From Alphaproteobacteria bacterium (GTDB taxonomy: Bacteria; Pseudomonadota; Alphaproteobacteria; Rickettsiales; 21-14-0-20-44-7), in NCBI GenBank assembly GCA_043757405.1, contig JAYVPI010000001.1:211437-275436 (forward strand): a DNA stretch of 64,000 nucleotides, given 5' to 3'. Below are positions 8,872-59,082 of this stretch, piece by piece (positions within the stretch are counted from its first letter, which is position 1; the number at the start of each line of letters is the position of its first letter). The position numbers and the translations under genes were made by a program. The notes beneath the pieces were generated by a model that saw only the letters and a list, made by a program, of their open reading frames with translations, searched no databases and was not told the DNA's origin.

Positions 8872-9698
8872 CGTTCGCGAAGCTTATAAAAAAGGCACTG
8901 GTTGCGATTATTATCGCATACACAACATTAGTAGCGACAGTATTTTTTATGCAAGAGCAGATGATCTATCACCCTACCCCGCCAATTGGCCTGCCTGCTG
9001 ATTACGGCCTCAAGAATTTTGAACAGGTAAATATAACTACCAGCGATAATTATAAATTAGTCGCCTGGTTCCATAAACCAGCAACCGCCAGAAAAGCTTT
9101 GATTTATTTCTATGGCAATGCAGATTCACTACAAAGCTACCCGCAATTCCTAAAAAAGTTTGCCGATCATGGCTATATGGTTTTAGCCATTAATTATCGC
9201 GGCTATGGTGGCTCTGAAGGCAAACCTTCAGAAAAAGGTTTGTATAATGACGGCCGCGCTGCAATCAACTTTGTCTCGGAATATATTAAGTCAGAAAACA
9301 TAATTGTTGTAGGCAGGTCTATGGGAACTGGCGTAACCGTACAAATGGCTACAGAATTTAATTTGAATGCAATCGTTCTGATCTCACCATATACTTCAAT
9401 TACAGATATTGCCGAGCGGCTATATCCATATTTGCCGATACGCCTAATTTCCACAAACCGCTTTGATTCGTTGAAGAAAATCAGCAACATTGCCGAGCCG
9501 GTGCTATTTATTCATGGCGACTTGGATAACTTCATTCCCCTATCAAACGCTCAAACTTTGTTTGATGCCACTAAATCTCGCAAGGCTTTAAATATTTACA
9601 AGGGGGGAAATCACGTTCAGTTGGACAAAAGCCGCATAGCCGATGATATATTCAAATTCGTGGATGGCCAAATGAAAGATAGCAATGCCGATAAATGA
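8868..9698 (+). CDS. Alpha/beta hydrolase (serine hydrolase, unknown substrate)
   Basis: N-terminal TM segment and nucleophile elbow GRSMGTG are present. The GTG start overlaps the mlaF stop. Confidence 0.7.
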   Translation: MTFAKLIKKALVAIIIAYTTLVATVFFMQEQMIYHPTPPIGLPADYGLKNFEQVNITTSDNYKLVAWFHKPATARKALIYFYGNADSLQSYPQFLKKFADHGYMVLAINYRGYGGSEGKPSEKGLYNDGRAAINFVSEYIKSENIIVVGRSMGTGVTVQMATEFNLNAIVLISPYTSITDIAERLYPYLPIRLISTNRFDSLKKISNIAEPVLFIHGDLDNFIPLSNAQTLFDATKSRKALNIYKGGNHVQLDKSRIADDIFKFVDGQMKDSNADK

Positions 9699-10452
9699 AT
9701 TTATAACCGCGCAGATGTTCGGCGTCTTCCTGGTGTTTTGCCGGGTGGGTAGTTGCTTTATGCTGATTCCAGGTTTTGGTGATGCATATGTTTCGCCGCG
9801 GGTGCGGTTGGTTTTTGGCCTGGTCTTGAGTTTGGCTTTGGCAAATGCAGTATCTAATATCCCAAAAATGCCGGTGACGTCATTTGGCACGCTCATTTTG
9901 ATTTTTCATGAAGTGATAATCGGGCTTTTGATTGGGGCGATCATTAAAATCATGACTGCGGCGGTGCATATTGCCGGCACGATTATCGCAGCGCAGTCTT
10001 CATTGGGCCAGGCCAGCCTTTTTGATCCCAGCCAGCAAAGCCAGGGCGCGGTGTTTGGTACATTTATGAATATGCTGGCGCTGGCGATGATATTCGCATT
10101 GGATTTTCACCATTTAATTATCAGTGGGATCGTATCTAGCTATGACGTATTCCCCCCCGTTTCGCCTCTGGCATGGGGAGATTTCTCGGAATTAGCAGTA
10201 AAGACTACAGCGCGGAGCTTTGATATTGGCGTTAGGATTTCGGCGCCGCTGATAGTGGTTGGAATTTTGATCAACCTCACATCCGGCATTTTGGCGCGGT
10301 TGATGCCGGCGTTTCAAGTGTTTTTTGTTATTTTACCCTTACAGATATTGGTCTCGCTATTCATTTTCATGACAACTCTTTCTGGGATTATGTTGGTGTA
10401 TATCCATTACTTGAATGACTCACTCGCCAATATTTTTCCACTAGGTGAGTAA
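9685..10452 (+). CDS. fliR: Flagellar biosynthetic (export apparatus) protein FliR
   Basis: Polytopic 255-aa protein with a FliR-like N-terminus (FLVFCRVGSCFMLIPGFG). Confidence 0.85.
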   Translation: MPINEFITAQMFGVFLVFCRVGSCFMLIPGFGDAYVSPRVRLVFGLVLSLALANAVSNIPKMPVTSFGTLILIFHEVIIGLLIGAIIKIMTAAVHIAGTIIAAQSSLGQASLFDPSQQSQGAVFGTFMNMLALAMIFALDFHHLIISGIVSSYDVFPPVSPLAWGDFSELAVKTTARSFDIGVRISAPLIVVGILINLTSGILARLMPAFQVFFVILPLQILVSLFIFMTTLSGIMLVYIHYLNDSLANIFPLGE

Positions 10453-10523
10453 AATGCTAATAAAAGTTATCGGTTAGTTAATATTTATTAGTTATCTTAG
10501 GTTATCATTCTAGGAGGGAAAGA

Positions 10524-10874
10524 ATGGATAACCTAAATACTACAAATATAACTACACAACAGATAGCAGCCGACATCTACCACAGCTACCTTGAAGAGGC
10601 GCACGGCGTCTTGGAAGATTTTAATATCGGGGCAAGGCCCGAATCACTGAATAAGATGAATATATTGTGGAACCAACTGCATATGGCAGGCGGAGCAAAA
10701 TATATTTATGCCGACGCTTTATATGATGACTTTTCGTCCCAATGGCTAAGTTCCAAAGGTAAGCAACTGATAGACGAACTCATCGAGGACGCGAAAAAGT
10801 CGAAAATGAATAAAGCTCTGAAAACTTTGAAAGAGCTGCGCCAAATTCTGGAAGATAAGCATCTTATAAACTAA
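10524..10874 (+). CDS. Hypothetical protein (116 aa)
   Basis: The ATG is preceded by GGAGGG and the ORF is followed by a hairpin plus T-run. I recognise no family. Confidence 0.5.
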   Translation: MDNLNTTNITTQQIAADIYHSYLEEAHGVLEDFNIGARPESLNKMNILWNQLHMAGGAKYIYADALYDDFSSQWLSSKGKQLIDELIEDAKKSKMNKALKTLKELRQILEDKHLIN

Positions 10875-10902
10875 GCTCACCTTCCAGTTTAATCCGAAAA
10901 CG

Positions 10903-10935
10903 CCCCGGGGCTCCGCGTCCGGGGGTTTTCTTTTT
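10903..10935 (+). terminator. Probable Rho-independent terminator
   Basis: CCCCGG...CCGGGG stem followed by TTTTCTTTTT. Confidence 0.5.
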
Positions 10936-10985
10936 AATTATGGGTTTTGTAACAAAACTGCAATGATGTTGGTGTAGAATTTCTC

Positions 10986-11285
10986 ATGTTAAAATATGGG
11001 ATATTATTAATCGTTCTTTTGATAACCGCTTGCGAAGGTCATCGCGATAATTTTCCTATGCGTAATCCAATCACAAACGAAGCCGTTAATTGTGAAAGCG
11101 GCCCTTATTGGTTTGATGAAGGCGCTCCCCAATTAGAAATTGCACAGGCCTGCATACATGCTTGCGAACTTCATGGATATAGAAGATACACCGGCAATCT
11201 GCATACCGACAAACCACGTCCACAAGTTGCAAATAAATATATGCAATTCAAAATACCGGCTCAATGTCGTGGAGATAAATTATGA
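10986..11285 (+). CDS. Putative lipoprotein (99 aa, Cys-rich)
   Basis: Signal peptide with a lipobox-like LITAC, and four further Cys residues. Confidence 0.55.
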   Translation: MLKYGILLIVLLITACEGHRDNFPMRNPITNEAVNCESGPYWFDEGAPQLEIAQACIHACELHGYRRYTGNLHTDKPRPQVANKYMQFKIPAQCRGDKL

Positions 11286-11407
11286 GCGATTTCACAGCTG
11301 ATGGTAATTGGGCATTATATTCAATGCAAAAGACACTTCCTGGTTTAGGTTATATAGGCGGTATATTGGGCGGATTAAGTGTCCAGCAAGCTATGCGTAT
11401 TGCTTAG
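11282..11407 (+). CDS. Possible 41-aa small membrane protein (Gly-zipper-like), below the ORF-track cutoff
   Basis: The ATG overlaps the lipoprotein stop (ATGA). Product is MSDFTADGNWALYSMQKTLPGLGYIGGILGGLSVQQAMRIA. Support is weak. Confidence 0.3.
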   Translation: MSDFTADGNWALYSMQKTLPGLGYIGGILGGLSVQQAMRIA

Positions 11408-11408
11408 C

Positions 11409-12035
11409 TTATGCCGCCGCTTTAAATACTTCATTACTCGCCAAATTCTTAGCCGCGAATTCCCAGTTCAATAAGTTATCGAGGAAAACTTTGATGAAAT
11501 CAGGGCGTTTGTTTTGGTAATCGAGATAATATGCGTGTTCCCAAACATCGAGTGTCAATAATGGAACATCGCCTTTGGTAAACGGGGTTTCGGCATTTGG
11601 GGTTTTGACGATTTTTAATTTGCCTGATTTGTCAGCAACTAACCATGCCCAACCTGAACCAAACTGGGTGATTGCGGCTTGGGTAAAGTCGGCTGCGAAT
11701 TTATCATAGCCGCCGAGGTCGCTATCAATTTTCTTGGCCAAATCACCGCTTGGTTTGCCGCCGCCATTTTTAGGCGTCAGGCAATTCCAGAAAAATGTGT
11801 GGTTCCAAACTTGCGCGGCGTTGTTGAAAAGGACTTTCTTGGATTCATCATCGGCAGTTTCGAGGATAATATCTTCCAGTGATTTTTTCTCAAGCGGAGT
11901 TCCGGCAGTTAACTCGTTCAATTTTGTGACATAAGCCTGGTGGTGCTTGCCATAATGGAAATCAAAAGTCTTTGCGCTCATATGCGGTTCGAGCGCGGTT
12001 TTTTCATATGGCAATGGGGGCAATGTAAAGGGCAT
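11409..12035 (-). CDS. sodB: Superoxide dismutase (Fe-type)
   Basis: Motifs DVWEHAYYLDYQN and AAQVWNHTFFW are present. The start is set at ATG 12035, preceded by GGAG; the track's 12047 start is TTG. Confidence 0.9.
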   Translation of the reverse strand: MPFTLPPLPYEKTALEPHMSAKTFDFHYGKHHQAYVTKLNELTAGTPLEKKSLEDIILETADDESKKVLFNNAAQVWNHTFFWNCLTPKNGGGKPSGDLAKKIDSDLGGYDKFAADFTQAAITQFGSGWAWLVADKSGKLKIVKTPNAETPFTKGDVPLLTLDVWEHAYYLDYQNKRPDFIKVFLDNLLNWEFAAKNLASNEVFKAAA

Positions 12036-12107
12036 GGTATTCTCCAATTCTGATTAATGGGCCAAGTTTAGTCAAATGCGATAAAAATTCAATCAGGGAA
12101 TTTTATG

Positions 12108-12572
12108 TTATCGAACTGCCTCGGCAGTTAGTTGTGGTAATTTAAAAGCTTTGTCACCTAATCCTAATTGCTGGCAAGCTGAATTGAAATATGCTGCCAT
12201 GGATAGCAACAATACCGAAGCTCCTGGCTTACCTAATTCCGCATGTGATAACTTGCCATATGTAGTTGCGCCTGCAATGTGTTTTTCTACAGCACCTCTA
12301 TCTGTGGGTTTGGGAGTAGTCCTTTCACGATCAATTAATGTCTGCGTGGAGTGATAAGGGCCTGAAAAATTTAAAGGGAATGTGCTGATGGCGCCTAGTA
12401 TATAATTCTCAAGCGCCACTGTTGTTCCGCAGCGCCGAAGCTCATCATAAATTTTCGCCTGTACTGTCGCGGTACCTGAAACTACTTCATCGCCAACGGA
12501 GTCTTTTTGCGCGGCTATTTCATCTAACATTACTAGATAAGCACTTTTATGTATTTGTGGCGTGATATTCAT
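12108..12572 (-). CDS. Hypothetical protein (154 aa)
   Basis: Long ORF in an otherwise unassigned gap. I recognise no family. Confidence 0.5.
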   Translation of the reverse strand: MNITPQIHKSAYLVMLDEIAAQKDSVGDEVVSGTATVQAKIYDELRRCGTTVALENYILGAISTFPLNFSGPYHSTQTLIDRERTTPKPTDRGAVEKHIAGATTYGKLSHAELGKPGASVLLLSMAAYFNSACQQLGLGDKAFKLPQLTAEAVR

Positions 12573-12640
12573 GACTGTCCGCTCAATTAAGATTTATTAA
12601 GCAATATATCAATTAGTCAAATATAACAAGCAAAAAAGCA

Positions 12641-13108
12641 TTAGCTGCGGAGTTTTTCCAGTAGTCCCTGTAATATATAGCTGGCCGCCAACTTATCCAC
12701 CAATTCCTTCTGCCGCGTATGCGTCATCGCCATCATATCCATACTGCGTTCAACGGCTTGGCTACTCATGCGCTCGTCTTGGAAATATATGGGGATATCA
12801 CGGATTTTCAGCATATTACGGCCAAACTGGCGTGAAGACTGGCATTTTGGGCCTTCCGTGCCGTCCATGTTGACCGGAAGGCCGATGATTACGGCACCGG
12901 CCTCATGTTCGTCAATTATGGCAAACAAGCGCCCGGCATCTGCGGTAAATTTTTTGCGCCGGATGATTACTAATGGTGAGGCGATTGTCTGTAATTTGTC
13001 ACTAAGCGCAACCCCAATTGTCTTCTCACCCAGGTCCAGGCCGATTATTCTTTGATTCTTATGGAGTTGGGAAATATCTTCTATGAACATATATTTCTTA
13101 TAAATCAT
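12641..13108 (-). CDS. ruvX: Putative pre-16S rRNA nuclease / Holliday junction resolvase-like YqgF (RuvX)
   Basis: Motif IIGLDLGEKTIGVALSD. Length is about 150 aa. Confidence 0.85.
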   Translation of the reverse strand: MIYKKYMFIEDISQLHKNQRIIGLDLGEKTIGVALSDKLQTIASPLVIIRRKKFTADAGRLFAIIDEHEAGAVIIGLPVNMDGTEGPKCQSSRQFGRNMLKIRDIPIYFQDERMSSQAVERSMDMMAMTHTRQKELVDKLAASYILQGLLEKLRS

Positions 13109-13123
13109 AAGTCATAAAAAGTA

Positions 13124-13675
13124 ATGGTTATATTTGCCAAGAAAACTGTAATCGGCTGGGAGGAATGGCTGGGCTTGCCTGAGCTGGGGCTGCCGGCGAT
13201 CAAGGCCAAGGTGGATACAGGGGCGCAGACTTCTTCGCTGCATGCGATGAATATCAAAGTCGTGCTGCGTAATGGCATTAGGTTTGTAAAATTCCGCATC
13301 AACCCAATTCATAAAAACAAAAAATTCGTTGTCCATTGTTCGGCGCCGTTAATCGACAGGCGTTATGTTGTGGATTCAGGCGGACATAGGGAAAAGCGCT
13401 ATGTAATTGAAACTGAAATGATTTTGGGACGCAAACATCACCGGATCGAGCTTACACTTACTAATAGAAAAACTATGGCTTTTCGGATGTTATTGGGCCG
13501 CCAAGCGATGGAGGTTGCAAAATTAGTGGTCGATCCGGTAGAATCCTGCCGGATGGGCAAGCTCAAGTTGGAGCAGGTCAGAGAAATTTATACAAAAAAA
13601 TTGGAGCAAGAGCAGATAGTTTATGAAGAACAGCACCCCCCGCATGAAGATAGCAATACTGGGCTCCAATCCTGA
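13124..13675 (+). CDS. RimK-associated retropepsin-like / 'ATP-dependent zinc protease' family protein
   Basis: N-terminal [32 protein letters not shown] is typical of the family usually encoded next to rimK. The gene overlaps the rimK start. Confidence 0.7.
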
Positions 13676-14552
13676 ACTCTATTCGCATACAAGAATGATC
13701 GAAGCTGCCAAAGCGCGCGGCCATAAAATCGATTTCATCAATATCAAAAATTGCTACATGAATATTTCGCGCAATAACCCGCAGGTATTTTATCGCGGCG
13801 GCGAAAAGCTAAAAAATTATGATGCCATTATCCCGCGCATCCGCCCTGCCCTGACTTTTTATGGCACCGCAGTTGTACGCCAGTTCGAGATGATGGGCGT
13901 ATTTTGTCTGAATGAATCAGTGGCGATTACACGTAGCCGCGATAAATTGCGCACGCTGCAACTGCTGTCACGCAAGGGAATCGATATGCCGATCACCGCA
14001 TTCGCGCATTCACCGGAAGATACCAAAGACATGATCAGGCTGGTTGGCGGTGCGCCGCTAATTGTGAAATTGCTGGAAGGAACGCAAGGCGTGGGCGTAG
14101 TATTGGCGGAAACTTCCAAGGCGGCGGAATCGGTAATCACCGCGTTCAAATCTTTAAAGGCTGATATTCTCGTTCAGGAATTTATCAAGGAAGCTGCTGG
14201 CCGCGATATCCGCTGCTTCGTGGTCGGTGATCGCATTATCGGTTCGATGCAGCGCGTAGCGAAAGAAGGCGAATTCCGCGCCAATGTGCATTTGGGCGGG
14301 GCAGTAATGCCGGTGGAAATTACTGCTGAGGAAAAAAAACTGGCACTCAAAGCCACCAAAGTTTTGGGCCTGCGCTGCGCAGGCGTTGATATCATACGCT
14401 CCAAAACGGGGCCAAAGGTTCTGGAAGTGAACTCATCTCCAGGTTTGGAGGGAATTGAGGAAGCTACTAAAAAGGATATAGCTTCAGAAATTATCAAGTA
14501 TCTTGAAAAGAGCGCCATCCCCAATAAAGTAAGAACCAAGGGCAAGGGATGA
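13644..14552 (+). CDS. rimK: Ribosomal protein S6 glutamate ligase RimK (ATP-grasp)
   Basis: The [14 protein letters not shown] start and ATP-grasp motifs ([26 protein letters not shown]) are present. Confidence 0.85.
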
Positions 14553-14628
14553 TATTTTATTGCTACCTCATAGTGGTGTTATAATCATGCATTATTAGTT
14601 AGCCGCCTTTACGAAACATCCCATCTCT

Positions 14629-14644
14629 TGGCACGTAGATTGCT
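14629..14644 (+). promoter_or_regulatory. Sigma-54 (RpoN) -24/-12 promoter upstream of flgL
   Basis: TGGCAC-GTAGA-TTGCT is an exact match to TGGCAC-N5-TTGCW. It lies 27 nt upstream of the flgL ATG, with GGAG at 14662 in between. Confidence 0.6.
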
Positions 14645-14670
14645 TGTATTACCCCAGAAATGGAGTAATT

Positions 14671-15576
14671 ATGGCTATTAACCGCGTATCCACAGCTTCC
14701 TTATACCAGCAAAACCTGAGTGATATCAGCAGTGTACAAGTTGAGTTGGCGAAACTGAACAAGCAGATTTCCAGCGGCTATAAGGCTAATTCATGGGATG
14801 AGCTGAATGGCAGTGTAGAGCGCGTTTCAGCTTATCAAACCAAGATTGATAGCATCAGCACTTATAATTCTAATAACACCAGCGTAATGGCGCGGTTGAA
14901 TGTTATGGACCATACTATGGGCCAGCTACAGGATATTGCTACACAATATGCCTCGCTGATTTCCCAGCGTAATAGCGGCGTGGGTGGTAACAGCCTCAAC
15001 TTTGCGACTCAGGCTAAAGCTATGCTTGACCAGATTTCACAAGATATGAACGTACAGATTGCCGGACGCTATGTTTTCAGCGGTTCTAAGACTAATACTG
15101 CCCCGGTTAATCAGCCGATTGGTATTTCAGGCTCGAGCGGAACTCCGAGCAATAGTTATTATAATGGCTCCAGCGATGCTTTAACGGCGCGGATCAGTGA
15201 CGCGCAAGTATTGCATTATGGCGTCCCCGGGGATGACCCGGCTTTCCAAAACCTTATTAGCGCTATAACCACCGGTATTGCCGGCAACGCTTCTAATGAC
15301 TCATCCCTGCTCAGCAAATCGATTGATAATATCAACTTGGCCATCCAGGGTCTGGCTGACGTAAAAACGGGAGTTGATACCAGCATAACGAATATCCAAA
15401 ACGTACAGGATCAGCACGCCACTTTAAAATTATATTGGCAACAAGCACTTAGTGACGAAACAAGCACAGATGTTGCCGAAGCCAGCATAAAACTCGCCGC
15501 CGACCAAACTACCCTGCAAGCCACATTCCAGGCGTTTGCCGGATTAACGAAATTGAAACTAACTGATTACCTCTAA
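14671..15576 (+). CDS. flgL: Flagellar hook-associated protein 3 FlgL
   Basis: Flagellin-type N-terminus (MAINRVSTASLYQQ) and C-terminus are present. fliW follows. Confidence 0.8.
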   Translation: MAINRVSTASLYQQNLSDISSVQVELAKLNKQISSGYKANSWDELNGSVERVSAYQTKIDSISTYNSNNTSVMARLNVMDHTMGQLQDIATQYASLISQRNSGVGGNSLNFATQAKAMLDQISQDMNVQIAGRYVFSGSKTNTAPVNQPIGISGSSGTPSNSYYNGSSDALTARISDAQVLHYGVPGDDPAFQNLISAITTGIAGNASNDSSLLSKSIDNINLAIQGLADVKTGVDTSITNIQNVQDQHATLKLYWQQALSDETSTDVAEASIKLAADQTTLQATFQAFAGLTKLKLTDYL

Positions 15577-15636
15577 CTTAACGAATAATTAAGACAATTA
15601 ACCCAAACTATAAAAACAACTAAAGGAACCAAGAAC

Positions 15637-16092
15637 ATGCAAGCACAAACAACGGTAAAATCCGAAACTCAATTGAAAACACGCTTCGGCGATATTTCAG
15701 CTGATACTTCAAAAGCTATCGAGTTTCCAAACGGTATTCTTGGTATGCCTAATCAGAAAAAATTCCTCATCAGCGCAATGCCAGATAAGAAAATGGAAAA
15801 ATTCCAGGTTCTGCAATCATTGAATGATTCTGACGTTTCCTTCGCAGTGGTGCCTTTGGCAACATTGGGTGCGTTGATTGACAACGAACACCTGGAAGAA
15901 ATCCGCAAAGTTCTCGAAATGAGCCAAGCTGATTTCCTCACTATGCTGATCGTATCGATCCAAAAAACACCAAGCGGCGCGAAACTTTCAGTAAATCTTC
16001 GCGCTCCATTGTTTATCGATACTGCAAACCGCGCCGGCTACCAAATCGTTTTGGCCAGCAGCAAATACCCTGTTCAGCATTATTTAGACTAG
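15637..16092 (+). CDS. fliW: Flagellar assembly factor FliW
   Basis: Contains TRFGDIS...IEFPNGILGMP...F. Length is about 150 aa. Confidence 0.85.
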   Translation: MQAQTTVKSETQLKTRFGDISADTSKAIEFPNGILGMPNQKKFLISAMPDKKMEKFQVLQSLNDSDVSFAVVPLATLGALIDNEHLEEIRKVLEMSQADFLTMLIVSIQKTPSGAKLSVNLRAPLFIDTANRAGYQIVLASSKYPVQHYLD

Positions 16093-16113
16093 TGATTGGC
16101 CTGTAATGAATTT

Positions 16114-16146
16114 AAGGCCCCGGCTATTGACCGGGGCCTTTTTTTA
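16114..16146 (+). terminator. Rho-independent terminator after fliW
   Basis: AAGGCCCCGG-ctattga-CCGGGGCCTT perfect 10-bp stem followed by a T-run. Confidence 0.75.
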
Positions 16147-16160
16147 TATAAGCTGCTGGA

Positions 16161-16925
16161 ATGAAAATAATCACCTGGAACGTCAATTCCATCGGCGCAA
16201 GGCTCCCGCATCTTTTGGTCTATTTAAAAGACCAAAGCCCCGACATTGCATTGTTGCAGGAAACCAAGACGGTGAATGAGAACTTCCCGCGGATGGAGAT
16301 CGAGGATCTGGGGTATAATTTGGCGATTCACGGGCAAAAGTCATATAACGGCGTGGCGATTTTGAGCAAATATGCGATCGAGGATGTTGTCACTACCCTG
16401 CCTGGCGATGATAATGATGTTGAGGCGCGGTATATCGAGGCGGTGGTAAAAGGCTTTCGAGTGGCCAGTGTTTATGTGCCCAACGGGATGGAAATCGGGC
16501 ATGATAAATTCCATTATAAATTGAAGTTTTTTGAACGCCTCCGCGACCACGCGCAAAATTTGCTGCAGTATAATGAAAAGCTGGTGATGGGCGGGGATTA
16601 TAATGTGGCACCGCAGGCGATAGATACGCATGATCCCAGCCGTGACGGGGTGGTTTGTTATCATCCGGCAGAGCGGTCACGTTTTCATGCTATTGAATAT
16701 TTGGGATTAACCGATGCGTTTCGGGCAGTGCATCCAGATAAGCAGAAGTTCAGCTGGTGGGATTATCGCGCTGGCGCATTCCAGCAAAATAAAGGGCTGC
16801 GTATCGACCATCTTTTGCTCTCAGCGGAAGCGGCGGATGGGTTGAGCGCATGTGATATTGATACTACGCCGCGCATATTGGAAAGACCATCAGACCATAC
16901 TCCGGTATGGTGCGATATAAATTGA
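16161..16925 (+). CDS. xthA: Exodeoxyribonuclease III
   Basis: Contains MKIITWNVNSI, LQETK and PSDHTPVW. Confidence 0.9.
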   Translation: MKIITWNVNSIGARLPHLLVYLKDQSPDIALLQETKTVNENFPRMEIEDLGYNLAIHGQKSYNGVAILSKYAIEDVVTTLPGDDNDVEARYIEAVVKGFRVASVYVPNGMEIGHDKFHYKLKFFERLRDHAQNLLQYNEKLVMGGDYNVAPQAIDTHDPSRDGVVCYHPAERSRFHAIEYLGLTDAFRAVHPDKQKFSWWDYRAGAFQQNKGLRIDHLLLSAEAADGLSACDIDTTPRILERPSDHTPVWCDIN

Positions 16926-16931
16926 GGTAAA

Positions 16932-17477
16932 ATGGGCAACCCGAAAAAAAACTTTGCTGAACGTTTCCTGGCCCTCACAGCCAAAATGCAAAAACCGCTA
17001 AGGCCCAAGGCTCCGGGCGAAGTTATTTATGGCGATATGCATAACCGCACTTTTGCGGCGCTGATCGATATAATTTTGCTTTTACCGATTATCCTAGTTC
17101 TTCCAACATTGTTGCTTTCTGATGCCGATGCCCAGAAGCGGACGATTATAATCAACTCTTATCAATTTATTGTGATCGGGATTTATAATATTTACTTCAC
17201 CCATAAATGCGGCGCAACACCGGGCAAGGTTATTGTGGGGCTGAAAGTGGTGGATATTATCACCAATGACAAACTCACTCTCAGCCAATGTGTGATTCGG
17301 TATCTGGCATATGTAACCTTCCCGCTGGGAATGCTTTTTGGCTCATTTCGACGTAATAAGCGCACTTGGCATGATCATATCGCCGATACTGTGGTGATTT
17401 TTTCGTCGAATCGGTGGTACAAGCTACAAGCCGATAGATTGAAGCAGAAGGTGAAATCGTACTTCAATATGCGTTGA
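16932..17477 (+). CDS. RDD family membrane protein
   Basis: TM segments plus an RTWHDHIADTVV C-terminal motif. Confidence 0.7.
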   Translation: MGNPKKNFAERFLALTAKMQKPLRPKAPGEVIYGDMHNRTFAALIDIILLLPIILVLPTLLLSDADAQKRTIIINSYQFIVIGIYNIYFTHKCGATPGKVIVGLKVVDIITNDKLTLSQCVIRYLAYVTFPLGMLFGSFRRNKRTWHDHIADTVVIFSSNRWYKLQADRLKQKVKSYFNMR

Positions 17478-17538
17478 TTTGTTGATTAAGTTAACAATTT
17501 GTCATAAATTGTTCAAATTCTAATGATAATGATTGTTT

Positions 17539-18378
17539 ATGACAGATGAAATAGCAGACCCGTTCAGTAGCTCGTTCACTAAAGGTGAAATTGGCAAATA
17601 TGGAATTGAGGCAATACCACAAGTGGCACTGACGCCAACTGAGGCGCTTGCGGCTACACTCCAAACTTTGGTGGTTGAAGGTAAAGGCGTAGATGTAAAA
17701 AAATTAAAATCCATGGTTGTTAATCTCAAAAACCTGGCGCCTTTGGTTGATAGTGACAATGATGGTAAAGTTACGCGCGAAGAATTTGGCGTAGCATTAC
17801 GTAAATTGCAATTAGCAGATAAAACAATAACTGCCGCGCTATCACCATCGGTAATAACGGATCTTGTTAAAACGATTCCGCCCGAAGGTCTAGGGATTGA
17901 TGAAATTAATGGGCAATTTGATTCGCTGAATGAAAAACTTGATGCCGCCGATAAAGATGGCAACGGTTATTATGATGGCAGTGAAATAATAATGCCAATT
18001 ACTAATGAAGGCGCATATAACTATGAGCAGTTTATAAAAGAAGTTTCTGAAGGTGAGCTCAGCAAGCCACTAAAAATTCCAACTGGATTCGGACAATTTA
18101 TAAGAATCACCCCTGCTCCTGAAACGCTTATTGGGGCTAAATTAGTATTGGATACAGTGCCAAAAGATATCGATAAATTGGACCTCAATGGCGATGGCGG
18201 GGTTTCCTTGAGTGAGTTAAAGCAACAATTGTTTAAAAGTATCGGTATGGATGCAGGCCAGCAAATTCTGCATAGTATTGGGCTGGATAAAATACCGGAT
18301 GGCGATCCACAGCTGACTGCGCCATTACAGGGAATAGCCAATCCGCTCCCGAATACTGAAATTGATAAAACAAGATAA
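17539..18378 (+). CDS. EF-hand calcium-binding-motif protein (3 loops), otherwise unknown
   Basis: Canonical 12-residue loops DSDNDGKVTREE, DKDGNGYYDGSE and DLNGDGGVSLSE are present. The first ATG is 17539; the track's 17533 start is TTG. Confidence 0.6.
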   Translation: MTDEIADPFSSSFTKGEIGKYGIEAIPQVALTPTEALAATLQTLVVEGKGVDVKKLKSMVVNLKNLAPLVDSDNDGKVTREEFGVALRKLQLADKTITAALSPSVITDLVKTIPPEGLGIDEINGQFDSLNEKLDAADKDGNGYYDGSEIIMPITNEGAYNYEQFIKEVSEGELSKPLKIPTGFGQFIRITPAPETLIGAKLVLDTVPKDIDKLDLNGDGGVSLSELKQQLFKSIGMDAGQQILHSIGLDKIPDGDPQLTAPLQGIANPLPNTEIDKTR

Positions 18379-18382
18379 AGCT

Positions 18383-19222
18383 TTAATCTGATTTTTTCAC
18401 AATCTCGTCAATGGCTTTCAACTGGGTCAGCAATCCTTCCATATCTTTTAACTTCACCATGCACGGCCCGTCAGATGGCGCGTTGTCCGGATCCTGATGC
18501 GTTTCCGCAAACACGCCCGCCACACCTGCCGCCACTGCGGCGCGGGAGATGTATGGAACCATATCGCGGTTACCGCCGCTGGCCGTACCCTGCCCGCCTG
18601 GTTGTTGGACTGAGTGGGTGGCGTCGATAACTACCGGATATCCTGTTTCCGCCATAATCGGCAGGGCGCGGATATCTGTCACCAATGTATTATAACCAAA
18701 TGATGCGCCGCGATCGGTGAGGATTATTTTATCGCAACCGGTGGAGGCGATTTTATCGGCGACATTTTTCATATCCCACGGTGCGAGAAATTGGCCTTTT
18801 TTGACATTGATGGCGCAGCCGTGTTTTACTGAAGCTTCCCCCGCCGCAATCAGGAGGTCGGTCTGGCGGCATAAAAACGCCGGAATTTGCATAATATCGA
18901 CAACTTGCGCCAGTTCGTCGCATTGCTGGCGTTCGTGGATATCGGTGAGGACGGGGACTTTAAATTCTTTTTTCAACGCCTCAAAAACCGCCAGTGATTT
19001 TTCAAGCCCCATCCCGCGCTGGCCTTTCAAGCTTGTGCGGTTTGCCTTGTCGAACGAGGTTTTGTAAATCAACGGGATGCCGAGCTTTTTGGTAATTTCC
19101 ACCAACTCGCCGCACATCATGAATGCATGGTCTTTCGACTCCATCTGGCATGGGCCGGCGATGAGGACGAAAGGCTTTTTATTGCTGAATTCTACGTTTT
19201 TAACTTTTACAGTTTTTTGCAT
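18383..19222 (-). CDS. kdsA: 2-dehydro-3-deoxyphosphooctonate aldolase (KDO-8-P synthase)
   Basis: The 279-aa product resembles KdsA along its full length (PFVLIAGPCQMES, ATHSVQ). Confidence 0.95.
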   Translation of the reverse strand: MQKTVKVKNVEFSNKKPFVLIAGPCQMESKDHAFMMCGELVEITKKLGIPLIYKTSFDKANRTSLKGQRGMGLEKSLAVFEALKKEFKVPVLTDIHERQQCDELAQVVDIMQIPAFLCRQTDLLIAAGEASVKHGCAINVKKGQFLAPWDMKNVADKIASTGCDKIILTDRGASFGYNTLVTDIRALPIMAETGYPVVIDATHSVQQPGGQGTASGGNRDMVPYISRAAVAAGVAGVFAETHQDPDNAPSDGPCMVKLKDMEGLLTQLKAIDEIVKKSD

Positions 19223-19231
19223 ATAGCTAAT

Positions 19232-20860
19232 TTAAGCCACCCGTTTAGGTTTTGCAACCTTGCCTTTCCCCATTGCCGCTTTCACGAAACTTACAAATAA
19301 CGGGTGCGGCTGGAACGGGCGGGATTTTAGTTCCGGATGGAACTGCACTGCTACAAACCACGGGTGGTCTTTGCGCTCTACTATTTCTGGTAATTTTCCA
19401 TCGGGGGAGATTCCGGAGATAATCAGGCCGGCTTTTTCTAATTGGGCAGCGTAATTTATGTTGGCCTCATACCGGTGGCGGTGGCGTTCGCTGATTTTGG
19501 CGGCGCCATAAATTTCGTGCGCTTTGCTGCCTTTTTTAAGTTCGCATGGATATGCACCAAGGCGCATTGTGCCGCCGATATCGCCTTTATCACCGCGTTT
19601 TTCTTTTTTCGCGCCCTTCTTCCATTCCGTCATCAAACCAACAACTGGCGATGCGCATGGGCCGAATTCTGTGGTATTGGCGTCCTTGATTTTGGCGACA
19701 TTACGCGCCGTTTCGATTACGGCCATTTGCATGCCGAAGCATATTCCGAGGAATGGGATTTTTTTCTCGCGGGCATAGCGAATAGCATCAATCTTGCCCT
19801 TGGTTCCGCGCTCGCCAAAGCCGCCGGGGACTACTATTGCATCAACGTCTTTATAATCTTTGCCGGTGGCGAATTCCGCATCCAGCCACTTTACTTTTAC
19901 TTTTGCGTTATTTACAAACCCGCCGTGGTCAAGAGCTTCGAGGAGGGATTTATAGGCATCGGCCAGGTTATATTTGCCGACAATCGCCACAGTCACCTCA
20001 CCTTTTAAACTGCGGATGGTTTTGATTATGTTGTTCCAGTTTTTCAAATCCGGCTTCTTATTACTCAGTTTAAAATAATTCGCCACGCGTGTATCGAGAC
20101 CATATTCATGATAGCTCACCGGAACTTCATAAATATTTTTTGCGTCGAGCGCCGGAATTACATCAGCCTCCGGAACATTACAAAACAATGCAATTTTCTT
20201 GAGTAAATCTTGCGGGATTACGCGGTCACTGCGGCACAAAATCATGTTTGGCTGGATACCGATCGAGCGTAGTTCTTTTACGGAGTGTTGTGTCGGTTTG
20301 GTTTTCAATTCTTTGGCTGACGGGATGTATGGCAACAATGTTAAATGGATATACATCGTTTTATCGCTGCCGAGTTGATAACCAATCTGGCGGATGGCTT
20401 CATAAAACGGCAAGCCCTCGATATCGCCGATGGTGCCGCCGATTTCACACAAAATGAAATCCGCGCCGTCAGTATCTTTCAAAACAAAGTTTTTGATTAG
20501 GTCGGTTACGTGCGGAATCACCTGCACCGTGCCGCCCAGATAATCGCCTTTGCGTTCCTTGGCGAGCAAGGTGGAATAAATTTTTCCGGCGGTGACGTTG
20601 TCGCCTTTGCGTGCATCGACACCGGTGAAGCGCTCATAGTGGCCAAGGTCGAGATCAGTTTCTGCGCCATCTTCGGTCACAAAAACTTCGCCATGCTGGA
20701 TCGGCGACATCGTGCCGGGGTCAATGTTTAAGTATGGGTCTAATTTGCGGAGACGGGTTTTATATCCGCGGGCCTGGAGCAAAGCTGCCAAACTGGCTGC
20801 CGCAAGGCCTTTCCCAAGTGATGAAGCAACCCCGCCGGTGATGAATATAAATCTGGTCAT
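19232..20860 (-). CDS. pyrG: CTP synthase
   Basis: Contains [18 protein letters not shown] and a GATase domain (GICFGMQ). Confidence 0.97.
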
Positions 20861-20924
20861 GACGGGAGACTATTTAAACTATTTATATAGCCGGGCGCAA
20901 GGATTAAGTTGCATAACCATTATC

Positions 20925-21145
20925 GTCATTGCGAGCTCTTGCGCGGTGTTGTATGGTAAGACTCCATAACATAAATAAGGACTGTCATCCTCGAACCGAA
21001 GGTTCGGGGATCCAGGGTTAAAGCCACCGGCGGAGTGTTTGATCCTGGATCCCCGCCCAAGTGGGCGAGGATGACGGTGTCTGTTTTTGGTAATCAAATA
21101 TCAATAACTTACCGAGCCATGCAACAATGCCGCTCTTGCAATGAC
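20925..21145. repeat. Composite nested palindromic element: outer GTCATTGCGAG...CTTGCAATGAC, with inner GTCATCC...GGATGAC at 20984-21075
   Basis: The outer arms are imperfect inverted repeats and the inner element has two hairpin modules. The reverse complement closely matches 23849-24119. Confidence 0.8.
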
Positions 21146-21155
21146 GGCTATCATA

Positions 21156-21911
21156 TTAACGGAAGAAGATTCTGATTGCCTCTAATCCCGCCTCACTACC
21201 ATATGGCAAATTGCACATAATCAGCCCGGAGCCGAGTGTGTTGGCGGTTTTGGAGAATATAATTTCCTGCTGCCAAAACTTCGGTAAATTATAGGTTTTT
21301 ATGGTGTCGACCATCACATCATGCGCCCCACTTTTTAAGATTGGGTACCATAGCATGATCACCGTTTCCGGCCATTTCTTGTGGAGCTTGCGGACGAATT
21401 CAGCCGTCTGGCCATATTCATCCTTTATCTCATAACTAGGATCAATCAGCACCAGCCCGCGCCGCACAATCGGCGGCGAAAGCGCCAGGGTTTGGGCGTA
21501 ACCATCTTCATTATGGGTAAATACATTACTGTAATTACCCATATTATCTTTCAAAATCCGAAATTCCTGCGGGTGCAGTTCCATCAAAAACATACGGTCA
21601 TCACGGCGTAGGATTTTATGGGCGATTGTCGGCGAGCCGGGATAAATGTTTTTGGGCAGGGAGTTTAAGATTTTTGTATATGGATGATTGGCAGGGAGTT
21701 TGTTCCGCAAAGCAATAATCCCCGCATTAGCCTCCCCGGTTTTTGTAGATTCGACACTGCTCAAATCATACAGGCCGCGACCGGCATGAGTTTCCATATA
21801 ATAAAGCGGTTTGTCTTTTTGCACCAACTGCTCCAGCACAACCGCCAGCGCCGCGTGTTTTTGGACATCAGCCAGGCATCCGGCATGGTATATATGTTGA
21901 TATGAGAGCAT
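21156..21911 (-). CDS. rlmJ: 23S rRNA (adenine2030-N6)-methyltransferase RlmJ
   Basis: N-terminus MLSYQHIYHAGCLADVQKH. Length is about 250 aa. Confidence 0.85.
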   Translation of the reverse strand: MLSYQHIYHAGCLADVQKHAALAVVLEQLVQKDKPLYYMETHAGRGLYDLSSVESTKTGEANAGIIALRNKLPANHPYTKILNSLPKNIYPGSPTIAHKILRRDDRMFLMELHPQEFRILKDNMGNYSNVFTHNEDGYAQTLALSPPIVRRGLVLIDPSYEIKDEYGQTAEFVRKLHKKWPETVIMLWYPILKSGAHDVMVDTIKTYNLPKFWQQEIIFSKTANTLGSGLIMCNLPYGSEAGLEAIRIFFR

Positions 21912-21927
21912 GAATTAGAAATTGAAT

Positions 21928-22218
21928 TTAGCGCATTATATCGGCTTTAGCTTGAGAAGCTGTAAGTGCATTAGCGTTAAAACCATTCTGCTTTGCGGTT
22001 GCCATAATAAAATCTCTTTGAGTGGCCGCAATACCTATGGGCATATTTGATATATCAATTGTGACTCTAAATCGCGGTATATCAACATCTAGCTTGAAAT
22101 ACTTTAATATATCTCTGAATGCCGGTTCTCTAAGTATCCAGAAATTAATATTTATTGCGGCAGGAGCTATTGGCTGCTGGCTTATTACTATATGCGTTAA
22201 TTCTTCTGGTTTCACCAT
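21928..22218 (-). CDS. Hypothetical protein (start uncertain)
   Basis: The track ORF extends to 22293, but that GTG lies inside the tRNA. The first ATG is at 22218. The region is AT-rich and no family is recognised. Confidence 0.35.
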   Translation of the reverse strand: MVKPEELTHIVISQQPIAPAAININFWILREPAFRDILKYFKLDVDIPRFRVTIDISNMPIGIAATQRDFIMATAKQNGFNANALTASQAKADIMR

Positions 22219-22263
22219 ATACAAAGATATATGCGATATCTTAACAAATGTCAATATTTGAAG

Positions 22264-22348
22264 TGGTGCGGTTAAAAAGACTCGAACTTTCACCCCGTGA
22301 AGGACAGCGACCTCAACGCTGCGCGTCTACCAATTCCGCCATAACCGC
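22264..22348 (-). tRNA. tRNA-Leu (anticodon GAG), class II, CCA encoded
   Basis: Manual fold: acceptor GCGGTTA/TAACCGC; anticodon stem CAGCG/CGCTG with loop TTGAGGT; long variable arm; T-loop TTCGAGT. The 3' end is ACCA. Confidence 0.85.
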
Positions 22349-22395
22349 ACACTGGAAGCGGGTTTAGCAGGGGGCAGAAAAAGAATCAACTGATT

Positions 22396-22455
22396 TCGTT
22401 TATCGTTGATCGTTGATCGTAAATTGTATAACGGTAAACGATCAACGATAAACGA
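22396..22455. repeat. TCGTTGATCG-type palindromic element (copy 1)
   Basis: TCGTTTATCGTTGATCGTT and AACGATCAACGATAAACGA are perfect 19-bp arms around AAATTGTATA. The element is related to 46953-47024. Confidence 0.7.
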
Positions 22456-22459
22456 GCTC

Positions 22460-23071
22460 ATGCAAATCATAAGATCAAACGAGCTGGTAGATTATCCTTC
22501 GGCGCTTTCCTTCATGGAAAACCGGGTGGACGCGATTATTGAGGGCACGGCGGAAAACACGCTTTGGCTGCTGGAACATCCGCCACTATACACTTCAGGT
22601 ACCTCAGCCAAAATCTCGGATTTATTGCAGCCGGAATTTCCAGTTTACAAGGCCGGGCGTGGCGGGGAATATACTTATCACGGGCCAGGGCAGCGCGTGG
22701 TTTATGTTATGCGGCGGCTGGAGAAACATGACTTGCGGGCCTATGTGCGGGATTTGGAACAGTGGATAATCAATACGCTGGCGCATTTTGGGATCATGGG
22801 TGAGCGGCGTGAGGGGCGGATTGGAATTTGGGTGGCGGCGAATGGCAGCGAAGCAAAAATCGCAGCACTGGGAATCCGCGTGCGGAAATGGGTGGCTTAT
22901 CATGGGATCGCGATCAACGTGAAACCGGATTTGCGCCATTTTGGCGGAATTGTTCCCTGTGGGATTTCAGAATTTGGGGTGACATCGTTTGAGAAACTGG
23001 GAGTGAAAGTTTCGCTGAATGAAGTGGATGAAGTTTTGATTGAGGAATTCATAAAATTATTTAAAAACTAA
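22460..23071 (+). CDS. lipB: Octanoyltransferase LipB
   Basis: Contains [11 protein letters not shown] and [17 protein letters not shown]. The start is set at MQIIRSNE; the upstream part of the track ORF runs through the palindrome. Confidence 0.9.
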
Positions 23072-23072
23072 C

Positions 23073-23119
23073 GTCATCCTGAGCATAGCGAAGGATCTTT
23101 CGCTTGCGCTCAAGATGAC
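23073..23119. repeat. 48-bp-type palindromic element (GTCATYCTGAGCGCAAGCGAAGGATC... family), intergenic copy
   Basis: GTCATCCTGAGCATAGCGAAGGATCTTTCGCTTGCGCTCAAGATGAC begins 2 nt after the lipB stop. Confidence 0.8.
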
Positions 23120-23133
23120 GTATAGATGGAATT

Positions 23134-23841
23134 ATGAAGCTAATAATCTCCCCTGCTAAAACCCTGGATTTTGAAACACCGGCGCAAACCAAAAAATTCA
23201 CGCAGCCGCTTTTTAAAGATGAGACGAAAAAACTACTTGGTAATCTGGAAAAATTCTCAGCTAAGAAAATTGGTGCGCTGATGCATATCAGCCCAAAACT
23301 TGCGGCACTGAATTATGAGCGATTTCAGAATTTTGCGGGACAGCCGAAGAAACAGGCCATCCTTGCATTTGACGGCGATGTTTATCTGGGACTGCAGGCG
23401 GGCGATTTTACGGAAGTCGAATTGTTATTTGCGCAAGAGCATTTATTTATTCTATCCGGACTTTATGGTTTGTTGCGGCCATTGGATTTGATCCAGGCCT
23501 ATCGTTTGGAAATGGGAACGGAACTAAAGCCGAACTTATATAAATTCTGGGGCGATAAGCTGACCAATACAATCGGTGATGAATTGGTCATCAACCTCGC
23601 CTCTGTCGAATATTCCAGCGCAGTGAAGCCAAAAAATATGATCAATGTGCATTTCAAAGAAATGAAAAACGGCAAGCCGGCTGTGGTTGCATTATTCGCC
23701 AAAAAAGCGCGCGGCATGATGGCGCGGTTTGTTATTAAAAATCGGGTGGCGGACGCTGAAGGATTAAAGGAGTTTGCGGATAGTGGATATAAGTTTTCCA
23801 AACAATCTTCTAACATAACTAACTTTGTATTTATTAGATAA
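23134..23841 (+). CDS. yaaA: Peroxide stress protein YaaA (UPF0246)
   Basis: N-terminus MKLIISPAKTLDF. Length is 235 aa. Confidence 0.85.
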   Translation: MKLIISPAKTLDFETPAQTKKFTQPLFKDETKKLLGNLEKFSAKKIGALMHISPKLAALNYERFQNFAGQPKKQAILAFDGDVYLGLQAGDFTEVELLFAQEHLFILSGLYGLLRPLDLIQAYRLEMGTELKPNLYKFWGDKLTNTIGDELVINLASVEYSSAVKPKNMINVHFKEMKNGKPAVVALFAKKARGMMARFVIKNRVADAEGLKEFADSGYKFSKQSSNITNFVFIR

Positions 23842-23848
23842 GTTTATT

Positions 23849-24119
23849 GTCATTGTGGGCTTAGCCAGCGTTGTTGCATGGCTCGGAAAGTTATTGATAT
23901 TTGGTCACCAAAAACAGACGCCGTCATCCTCGCCCGCTTGGGCGGGGATCCAGGGTCGAACACTCCGTAGGTGTCTGTAGCCCTGGATCCCCGAACCTTC
24001 GGTTCGAGGATGACAGTCTTTATTCGTGCTATGGAATCTTAACCATGCAACAACGCCGCTTAAAGCCGTAATCAATCTCCATGCTTGAGTTGAGATTGCG
24101 GCTCGTAGGCCGCAATGAC
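23849..24119. repeat. Composite nested palindromic element, inverted copy of 20925-21145 (inner element 23923-24014)
   Basis: Aligns base for base, with few differences, to the reverse complement of 20925-21145. It carries an extra hairpin, ATTGCGGCTCGTAGGCCGCAAT. Confidence 0.8.
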
Positions 24120-40125: not shown

Positions 40126-40173
40126 GTCATCTTGAGCGCAAGCGAAAGATCTTTCGCTCGCGCTCAAGATGAC
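40126..40173. repeat. 48-bp palindromic element at the era/dnaE junction
   Basis: GTCATCTTGAGCGCAAGCGAAAGA|TCTTTCGCTCGCGCTCAAGATGAC has one arm mismatch. It contains the dnaE stop codon (40164-40166). Confidence 0.85.
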
Positions 40174-49654: not shown

Positions 49655-50377
49655 CTATTTTTTATCGCAAACCGCCTCAAAAAATATCGCCCGCGTGGTA
49701 TTGGCGAGGTTTTTCTTCTGATACTTAGTTTCAATATGGTCAATAGGTTGTGTTTGCCAATCTGCCCTGGAACCTGCCAACCAACGAAATTTATCGTGTT
49801 CCAGCAATTCTCTGGCGATCCATTTAGCATAATCTTCGTGATCCGTGGCAATTCTGAGCCTGGCATCCCGCTTCATAATTCGTGCAAGCAAGTCTAAAGT
49901 TTGCTTCGATATTATCCGGCGTTTATTCTGCCGTTTCTTTGGCCACGGATCGGGGAACAGTATAAATACACGATCAATAACTCCCTCCCACACGTCATCC
50001 TGCGGCTCGACCGCAGGATCTCCTATGGTCAAGCCATATGGTGACGTAATTAATTGACGAAAATCTCCGGCATAGACTCGGATATTCTTAAGCTCATTCT
50101 CTTCAATCCCACGCAATAATTTTACAGTTCCGTTTACAAACGGCTCGCAGCCAATAAAGCCAATTTTGGGATTTGCCAGCGCCTGATGCAATAAATGACC
50201 ACCATCACCAAAGCCGATCTCCAGCCAGATTTCTTTGAAATCAAACTTAGGAAAGCCGTCAACTTTCACTTTGGGCAAAACTTCCGCCAACAGCTTTTTG
50301 GAATTATCACGCAGCTTGCGCGACTTGGTACGACCAAAGCTTTGCAGGTATTTAGGCGACTGCTTTGCGTAATTCAT
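49655..50377 (-). CDS. trmB: tRNA (guanine46-N7)-methyltransferase TrmB
   Basis: Contains [14 protein letters not shown]. The start is set at ATG 50377 and overlaps the metK 3' end by 26 nt. The track's 50443 start is less likely. Confidence 0.85.
49994..50045. repeat. GTCATCC...GGTGAC element inserted in frame in trmB
   Basis: GTCATCCTGCGGCTCGACCGCAGGATCTCCTATGGTCAAGCCATATGGTGAC encodes [17 protein letters not shown]. Confidence 0.8.

Positions 50378-55934: not shown

Positions 55935-59082
<3,148 letters not shown>

Follow-up and report, generated by a model that had tools for sequence, protein, structure and literature searches.

Introduction

In repetitive extragenic palindromes (REPs) tagged by the motif CGTC the head, CGTC or TGTC, is unpaired, the stem begins with AT, the loop is short and the tail is C or CCA; most of them form head-to-head dimers, frequently of unlike partners, whose structured spacers measure 20-100 nt (Di Nocera, De Gregorio & Rocco 2013, PMC3733652). 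They are mainly alphaproteobacterial and lie 3' of genes, typically between convergent genes, with some intragenic copies; the Neisseria dRS3/NTS and the Rickettsia RPE-4/RPE-6 repeats belong to the same class (PMC3733652). In 2025 NTS, and more generally Ssn-related motifs (SRM), were shown to be hairpins that the small GIY-YIG nuclease Ssn (cd10448) targets as single strands, the C right after the palindrome being critical for SsnA binding (PMC11893778). In the present study we analyse two composite repeats, copy A (20925-21145) and copy B (23849-24119), that contain hairpins of this class and bracket in inverted orientation a 2.7-kb block of genes in a stretch of 64,000 nt (the window) of contig JAYVPI010000001.1, from an uncultured alphaproteobacterium of 47% GC.

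Other described systems resemble parts of this locus. REPINs, the REP doublets mobilised by REP-associated tyrosine transposases (RAYT; Bertels & Rainey 2011, PMC3116915), are likewise inverted-hairpin doublets that form one long hairpin and occur in many copies. REPINs differ in having GTAG heads and a Y1 (RAYT) transposase, whereas for CGTC REPs none is known and the associated protein is Ssn. REPs are also documented targets of insertion sequences (IS) from five IS families, IS5 included (PMC1525189). Elements such as IS1397, ISKpn1, ISPsy8, ISPa11, ISPpu9/10, ISRm22 and ISNm1106 break the hairpin at a fixed position, and the REP is rebuilt when the element and one direct repeat are removed (Tobes & Pareja 2006, PMC1525189). 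For IS903 the duplication is 9 bp (PMC13618097; PMC2577343, Table 1), the end reads GGCTTTGTTGAATA (PMC8477213) and the preferred target is WTTYA-N9-TRAAW (PMC2577343).

Here we propose that each repeat consists of three nested selfish layers from two unrelated systems, namely a CGTC-tagged REP hairpin, a MITE (miniature inverted-repeat transposable element) of the IS903 group inserted into that hairpin, and a REP dimer carried within the MITE, and that this nesting is present twice. We give this reading a probability of about 0.72. Within the IS903 group neither the MITE nor its parent IS appears to have been described before; all components of the locus are of known kinds, and the locus is ordinary selfish-DNA litter around four housekeeping genes.

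Results and Discussion

Extent of the inverted repeats

A repeat search of the 64-kb window pairs 20957-21130 with 23868-24041 as arms that are 90% complementary over 174 nt, and blastn recovers the same inverted pair (171 nt, 90% identity, E = 3e-55); a third copy is absent from the window. The first-pass annotation of this DNA had reported a pair of inverted elements around the 2.7-kb block, with a 92-nt GTCATCC...GGATGAC element in both copies (20984-21075 and 23923-24014), and we confirm these points; the copies are truly inverted, as it held, with two unlike inner hairpins standing in opposite order. It had further taken copy A for a 221-bp composite that aligns almost base for base with 23849-24119 and has the inner element exactly at its centre, and these parts of the description fail. 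Global alignment and exact mapping confine the similarity to 20943-21131 against 24057-23867 (189/191 nt, about 88% identity; 91% in the inner dimer, 89% and 79% in the arms), and outside these limits only the generic heads GTCATTG and CAATGAC align. The outer parts that do not align measure 18 + 14 nt in copy A and 18 + 62 nt in copy B, which has on one side 52 extra nt without counterpart in copy A. The longest perfect run common to the copies is 38 nt, and the arms of the 221-nt palindrome, 59 and 70 nt long, place the inner element off centre. The analysis of the repeat boundaries replaces the two-layer anatomy proposed before by one of three nested layers.

Folded as single strands, both composites are long hairpins (z = -6.6 and -8.9 against shuffles). 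One of the outer junctions is reproduced in a Logan contig (L115, SRR22198271) from an independent short-read assembly of the same organism, which is 100% identical to window 9232-21009 and shows the succession of pyrG, outer hairpin, direct repeat, MITE arm and inner hairpin; this 20-kb contig ends within the shared 38-mer and so carries no orientation information. The composite had no blastn match among plasmids, a metagenome scan with a 24-nt arm pattern gave no match, and the Rfam scan returned a tRNA only, with no match to the composites. The promoter and terminator scan found nothing above chance and no terminator-like site.

The middle layer as a probable MITE flanked by direct repeats

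MITE copy A occupies 20943-21131 on the plus strand (189 nt) and is composed of an arm (20943-20983), the inner dimer (20984-21075) and a second arm (21076-21131). MITE copy B lies at 23867-24057 on the minus strand (191 nt), with arms at 23867-23922 and 24015-24057 around its dimer at 23923-24014; once copy B is reverse-complemented, the two agree at about 88% of positions. The ends are GCGGTGTTGTATGG (degenerate) and CCATGCAACAATGCC in copy A and AGCGTTGTTGCATGG and CCATGCAACAACGCC in copy B. They define a unit GGCGTTGTTGCATGG...CCATGCAACAAYGCC with a terminal inverted repeat of 15-20 nt, GGCGTTGTTGCATGG(CTCGG), that extends to GGCGTTGTTGCATGGCTCGG on one arm. Besides the four MITE ends, the 15-nt terminal repeat has three weak matches in the window, with 2-3 mismatches and at about chance level. 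Without its passenger dimer the MITE measures 97 nt and has no coding capacity, and the short open reading frames (ORFs) that cross the copies have no Pfam match.

Both copies are flanked by direct repeats that sit exactly at the limits of the A/B similarity. In copy A the octamer GCTCTTGC at 20935-20942 abuts the start of the similarity and recurs 8/8 identical at 21132-21139. In copy B GCTTAGCC at 23859-23866 matches GCTTAAAGCC at 24058-24067 except for a 2-nt indel (10 nt on the right against 8 nt on the left). The repeats are matched within each copy and unlike between copies (4/8 positions), and a perfect 8-mer has a chance probability of 1.5e-5 in a fixed register and of about 4e-4 when 25 registers are allowed. 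The repeat of copy A can be read as a perfect 8-bp pair, or as 8/9 with one position eroded. Separate, matched direct repeats at the limits of similarity point to two separate insertions, each with its own target duplication.

The origin of the MITE was traced through its ends. The right end of copy A, CCGAGCCATGCAACAATGCC, is identical to the end of IS5-family elements of about 1082 nt, and the terminal sequence GGCGTTGTTGCATGGCTCGG of copy B matches the right end of the same IS. The 20-mer CCGAGCCATGCAACAAYGCC from the MITE end occurs in 64 JGI metagenome contigs, often at contig ends, and in most of them it comes after the conserved 3' end of a transposase gene; the downstream sequence varies from match to match. 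Full copies of about 1082 nt are present in 18 contigs, with the matching left end GGCGTTGGTGCATGGCTC. Internal-deletion derivatives that keep both ends measure 265, 473, 491 and 642 nt (L134 722-986, L175 74-338, L159, L163, L127). The transposase encoded by the full copies belongs to the IS5 family (NCBIfam NF033579, 263 bits against a cut-off of 140; also Pfam DDE_Tnp_1_5 and DDE_Tnp_1), aligns with the IS903 and IS903B transposases over 99% of its length (E ~1e-52) and has as its closest named relative ISAli17 of Azospirillum, at 46% identity.

The identity of the 20-nt end, together with an IS5-family transposase of the IS903 group, identifies the middle layer as an IS903-group MITE. Like other elements of this kind it is small and noncoding, and its terminal 20 nt agree in every position with the right end of the copies of about 1082 nt; the motif GGC..TTGTTG is common to its end and to GGCTTTGTTGAATA of IS903, and its flanking direct repeats, read as 8 bp, come near the 9 bp of IS903. 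It differs in the REP dimer that it carries as an internal passenger. The MITE family looks undescribed. An origin from IS6/IS26 was considered as well, suggested by the resemblance of GGCGTTGTTGCATGG to GGCACTGTTGCAAA and by the 8-bp duplications of IS26, and was overruled by the IS5-family, IS903-group matches of the transposase.

The outer layer as probable resident REP hairpins

At site A the outer layer is a short CGTC-type REP hairpin on the plus strand, with its 5' half (GTCATTGCGA) at 20925-20934 and its 3' end (AATGAC) at 21140-21145. Removal of 20943-21139, i.e. of the MITE and one direct repeat, rebuilds GTCATTGCGAGCTCTTGCAATGAC, a 24-nt hairpin of -6.7 kcal/mol (z = -4.2). At site B the start of a resident REP dimer (GTCATTGTGG) lies at 23849-23858 on the plus strand and the rest at 24068-24119, where an intact hairpin, TGTC-ATTGCGGCC-TACG-AGCCGCAAT, is read on the minus strand (24092-24119). 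When the MITE and one direct repeat are taken out, a 70-nt dimer of two inverted hairpins is restored (-18.3 kcal/mol, z = -6.0). The outer heads are CGTC at 20924 and TGTC at 23848 and 24120; the stems have 7-9 bp and begin with AT, the loops have 4-6 nt, and the outer hairpin of B has the tail -CTCAA.

The resident nature of the outer element at site B is supported by a relative. In contig L002, the closest available relative with a yaaA/uvrC spacer, an uninterrupted 73-nt dimer stands at the exact site of B and is like the rebuilt dimer in position, size and architecture, running from 5 nt past the yaaA stop to 3 nt before the uvrC stop. The outer element of B is therefore an old resident that was split by the MITE. 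For site A, an unoccupied solo hairpin (CGTCATTACGAGCGAAGCGCGGCAATGACG) that is similar to the rebuilt one is found elsewhere in the window, at 54046-54075.

Both duplications begin where the loop starts, 10 nt past the G of GTCATTG; the window has four hairpins of the GTCATTG type, and two are occupied. These two insertions suggest that the MITE targets REP hairpins. As with the REP-targeting IS, the hairpin is broken at a fixed position and is rebuilt on removal of the element with one repeat, and IS5 is among the five families concerned; the present case differs in that the target is a CGTC-type and not a GTAG-type REP, that the inserted element is a MITE and not a full IS, and that two insertions make the specificity suggestive. 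A TTAA duplication around the whole insertion of about 250 nt at site A, seen relative to L002, was dropped as a candidate, its 4 nt being indistinguishable from chance.

The inner layer is a dimer of CGTC-tagged REP hairpins

In the inner element, 92 nt long, two unlike CGTC-tagged REP hairpins stand head to head around a structured spacer (20984-21075 in copy A, fold z = -5.7), and the same two hairpins are present in the opposite order at 23923-24014 in copy B. A hairpin scan resolves them as TGTC-ATCCTCGAACC-GAA-GGTTCGGGGAT-CCAGG on one strand and CGTC-ATCCTCGCCC-ACTT-GGGCGGGGAT-CCAGG on the other. Copy A has the head TGTC at 20983-20986 and, on the minus strand, the head CGTC at 21073-21076; the heads of copy B are identical. 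The stems have 10-11 bp and begin with AT, the loops have 3-4 nt, and the tail is -CCAGG in each of the four inner hairpins. The differences between the copies fall in loops or spacer in 8/8 cases and none lies in the 60 nt of heads and stems, for which the chance probability is (32/92)^8, about 2e-4.

In a scan of one genome per species the core CGGGGATCCAGG...CCTGGATCCCCG was found at at least 110 loci in diverse genomes, with the same architecture; among the matches listed are Azospirillum, Sphingomonas, Micavibrio and Caulobacterales, mostly with GTCATCC...GGATGAC dimers. Among the matches listed, the closest relatives of the inner hairpin (GTCATCCTCGACCGAAGGTCGGGGATCCAGG) stand in arrays (L083 3750-4300 and L028 3090-3220) of the metagenome-assembled genome Proteobacteria bacterium BP9.bin76; there the dimer follows a third hairpin in a constant layout, which recurs several times within 500 nt. 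Many copies of the same core, CCGGGGATCCAGG...CCTGGATCCCCGG, are also present in Candidatus Kaiserbacteria of the candidate phyla radiation (L011, L020, L023, L037, L045, L065, L077, L084 and others), without GTCAT heads and set in a different, longer palindromic repeat.

The inner dimer has the same position in both copies of the repeat and a divergence similar to that of the arms, indicating that the composite was copied as a unit. The earlier claim of propagation as a unit thus stands in this respect, and it fails as to what the unit is, which is the MITE with its inner dimer and not the GTCATTGCGAGC...GCAATGAC palindrome.

Membership in the CGTC and Ssn class

Both the 92-nt element within the MITE and the GTCATTG hairpins around it fit the general design of the CGTC REPs. 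The heads of the class (CGTC, with the variants TGTC and CCTC), a C/CCA tail and genomic repetition are found for both; NTS reads CGTCATTCCCGCGMAVGCGGGAATCYRG and the inner hairpin here TGTCATCCTCGAACCGAAGGTTCGGGGATCCAG. Stem and loop sizes are slightly off the published ranges (stem 8-9 bp, loop 4-5 nt), the inner stems having 10-11 bp against 8-9 bp in published families, and the design is the same. About 22 hairpins whose stem has 8 bp or more occur in the window, and at least eight head-to-head dimers. The strict SRM pattern HGTCWYN(0-2)YYVSBRHN(0-5)WNVSBRGN(0-2)RNCYNB has 12 matches in the window; the inner and outer hairpins of the locus are not among these because their stems are longer.

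Neither RAYT nor Ssn was seen in the window, and tblastn with the GIY-YIG protein of a more distant relative (L003, GCA_964545245.1) found no ssn gene in these 64 kb. In that relative an 89-aa GIY-YIG (Ssn-like) gene stands directly after yaaA, with CGTC hairpins (CCGTCATCGCGCACTTGATGCGCGATCCGG) on both sides (10219-10640), which is the motif-gene-motif layout described for ssn.

The bracketed block has kept its orientation in the assembled genome

The bracketed block lies between pyrG on one side and uvrC on the other, copy B standing between convergent genes. Its content had been given as rlmJ, an orphan ORF, tRNA-Leu, lipB and yaaA, and the Pfam, NCBIfam, ARAGORN and Rfam results bear this out. 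The first gene is rlmJ (21156-21911, minus strand; Pfam RsmJ, E = 9e-47), followed by the orphan ORF (21928-22218, minus), by tRNA-Leu (gag) at 22264-22348 on the minus strand (ARAGORN; Rfam 53 bits), by lipB (22460-23071, plus; NCBIfam NF010921, 314 bits) and, as the last gene, by yaaA (23134-23841, plus; Pfam H2O2_YaaD, E = 5e-84). The orphan ORF lies in a segment of 36% GC and its coding status is doubtful, a longer reading overlapping the tRNA gene; it has no Pfam or NCBIfam match and finds only itself among 5.8 billion proteins.

The homologous inversion of this block, suggested when the repeats were first noted, finds no support in relatives that lack the repeats. In L002, whose YaaA is 79% identical to that of the window, the order is pyrG(-), rlmJ(-), tRNA-Leu(-), lipB(+), yaaA(+), uvrC(-), with a pyrG/rlmJ spacer of 45 nt and no MITE at either site. 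A second relative (DRR438521), with a PyrG 92% identical to that of the window, is represented by two Logan contigs, L116 and L001, which have 21 nt of the tRNA gene in common as their overlap; here rlmJ is followed by pyrG after a 32-nt spacer, yaaA overlaps uvrC and no MITE is present. Gene order and orientation in the window are equal to those of both. The named relatives with a PyrG of 65-70% identity are Magnetospirillum, Rhodospirillales, Rickettsiales and "Alphaproteobacteria bacterium".

Recombination between the copies, or intramolecular replicative transposition, would leave unmatched flanks (by the logic of PMC1525189). Each copy keeps its matched pair of direct repeats and the orientation is that of the relatives, so the assembled genome shows no net inversion since the insertions. 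The 2.7-kb block is in the ancestral orientation. Furthermore, no site-specific recombinase gene is found in the block or among the flanking genes (PyrG, UvrC).

The repeats had also been thought long enough to serve as a substrate for inversion. RecA-dependent recombination proceeds at low rates between divergent sequences with short exact runs. With a divergence of about 12% and a longest exact run of 38 nt the copies make a poor substrate, and recombination between them is possible in principle, at a rate predicted to be low.

Proposed order of events

We suggest that the pyrG/rlmJ and the yaaA/uvrC spacers each held a GTCATTG...CAATGAC hairpin of the CGTC-tagged REP class. At each site an IS903-group MITE would then have inserted into the hairpin loop, duplicating 8 (possibly 9) bp, with a transposase encoded elsewhere supplying the activity in trans. 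The 92-nt head-to-head dimer, of another CGTC-REP subtype, may have entered the middle of the MITE before both insertions, in which case it travelled with the MITE. The two copies would represent independent insertions that took opposite orientation by chance.

Several observations weigh against this proposal. Only two copies of the MITE are available, and their AT-rich arms are unlike the GC-rich IS beyond the 20-nt ends. The duplication reads 8 bp where IS903 makes 9, and the targets do not fit WTTYA-N9-TRAAW. The full and the short metagenome copies have no clear target duplications, maybe as a result of chimeric assembly, so the length typical of the family is not fixed by full copies, and none is evident around ISAli17. 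No autonomous partner was seen in the 64-kb window, part of a contig of at least 279 kb: neither a transposase of the family of the MITE nor one like those of IS6 or IS26 is encoded there, and activity in this genome is putative. The scarcity of GTCATTG hairpins in the window means that the hairpin halves could travel with the element, and the hairpin of site A is missing from both relatives and must have arrived separately.

Alternative explanations

The whole 221/271-bp palindrome, with ends GTCATTGC...GCAATGAC, could itself be mobile through the REP machinery in a REPIN-like manner, its inverted copies flipping the 2.7-kb block. Both copies are indeed bounded by GTCATTG...CAATGAC and fold as long hairpins, hairpins of this type are otherwise rare in the window, and the copies share 174 nt at 90% in inverted orientation. 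We nevertheless regard this explanation as improbable, and for the assembled genome it is largely refuted, since the outer parts are unalignable (18 + 14 against 18 + 62 nt), the direct repeats are matched within each copy and unlike between copies (4/8), the outer dimer of B is unbroken in L002 at the same site, and the genes have the same orientation in relatives that lack the repeats, the direct-repeat pairs are intact and the longest exact shared run is 38 nt. A single intramolecular replicative transposition, giving a second inverted copy and an inversion of the intervening DNA in one step, is a very remote prospect: inverted copies around a short segment are its classical product (general IS biology; PMC1525189), yet it would split the target duplication between the copies, whereas A has a perfect 8/8 pair and B a near-perfect one, and gene order and orientation equal those of relatives without the element.

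The strong structures, with stems perfectly conserved while loops vary, and the position of copy B between convergent genes, a typical REP location (PMC3733652), would also suit a functional element that was selected on either side of the block, for instance a transcription terminator or a site where a protein binds RNA or DNA. Such a role seems unlikely to us, because the scans gave no Rfam match and no terminator-like site, close relatives lack the elements at both sites, and the IS-identical terminal repeats with their direct repeats are transposition scars; stem conservation is in any case expected for REP/Ssn motifs. That the repeats reflect an assembly artefact or chance resemblance is hardly credible. 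The source is a metagenome-assembled contig and the independent short-read assembly breaks within the repeat, but a divergence of about 12% between A and B does not fit a collapsed or duplicated assembly product, L115 reproduces the pyrG-side junction at 100% identity over window 9232-21009, and the blastn match has E = 3e-55.

A variant of the nested-layer proposal, which we consider doubtful, makes the MITE a true hairpin-seeker of GTCATTG-type CGTC-REP loops, so that the carried dimer is not passive and the two selfish systems are functionally coupled. It is conceivable that through the dimer the REP/Ssn system would then reach new sites aboard a DDE transposon, or that the dimer would let the MITE use hairpin-binding machinery for targeting.

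The nested reading, with the MITE inserted into resident hairpins, removes a false lead, there being no support for an invertible housekeeping block at the locus, and provides a worked example of how repeat layers can be separated, namely by the limits of similarity, by direct repeats and by the empty sites of relatives. An IS903-group MITE that had no name before is added, with a parent IS family common in metagenomes, and CGTC-type REP hairpins, the class linked to the Ssn nuclease, are presented as putative landing pads for a DDE transposon in an uncultured alphaproteobacterium. If the targeting of hairpins holds genome-wide, the rule that "REPs attract insertion sequences" would be extended to the CGTC/Ssn class.

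Other repeats in the block and the window

A 47-nt CGTC-type (GTCATC) palindrome lies between lipB and yaaA (23074-23120). It is present at the same site in L002 (1915-1965), and is therefore old, is absent from L001, and has near-identical copies at 40126-40173 and 54451-54498. The spacer between tRNA-Leu and lipB is filled by a 70-nt palindrome of another type (22391-22460), without a GTCAT head and with arms 87% complementary, which replaces a 35-nt stretch common to L001 and L002. The content of the rlmJ/tRNA-Leu spacer is lineage-specific (window 21912-22263; L116 74-556; L002 1040-1150): the window has the 36% GC orphan ORF, one relative an unrelated 160-aa ORF with a signal-peptide-like start, and another a palindrome of about 100 nt.

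Some CGTC elements of the window are intragenic. Within dnaE (40164-43625, minus strand) an in-frame head-to-head CGTC-REP dimer at 42660-42732 encodes 24 residues, in a region with about 13 extra residues (gaps) relative to the E. coli Pol III alpha subunit (2hnh), and the Pfam domain match runs through it; a REP within dnaE has been reported for Rickettsia conorii too (PMC3733652). Hairpins or dimers of the same type at 56999-57062, 54451-54498, 54046-54075 and 49994-50022 lie inside long ORFs, one for a class-III aminotransferase, one for a class-I/II aminotransferase, which has two of the elements, and one for a TrmB-like methyltransferase, with Pfam domains spanning the insertion points. 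Together with the dimer in dnaE, five elements in the 64 kb are intragenic, a density like that of Rickettsia.

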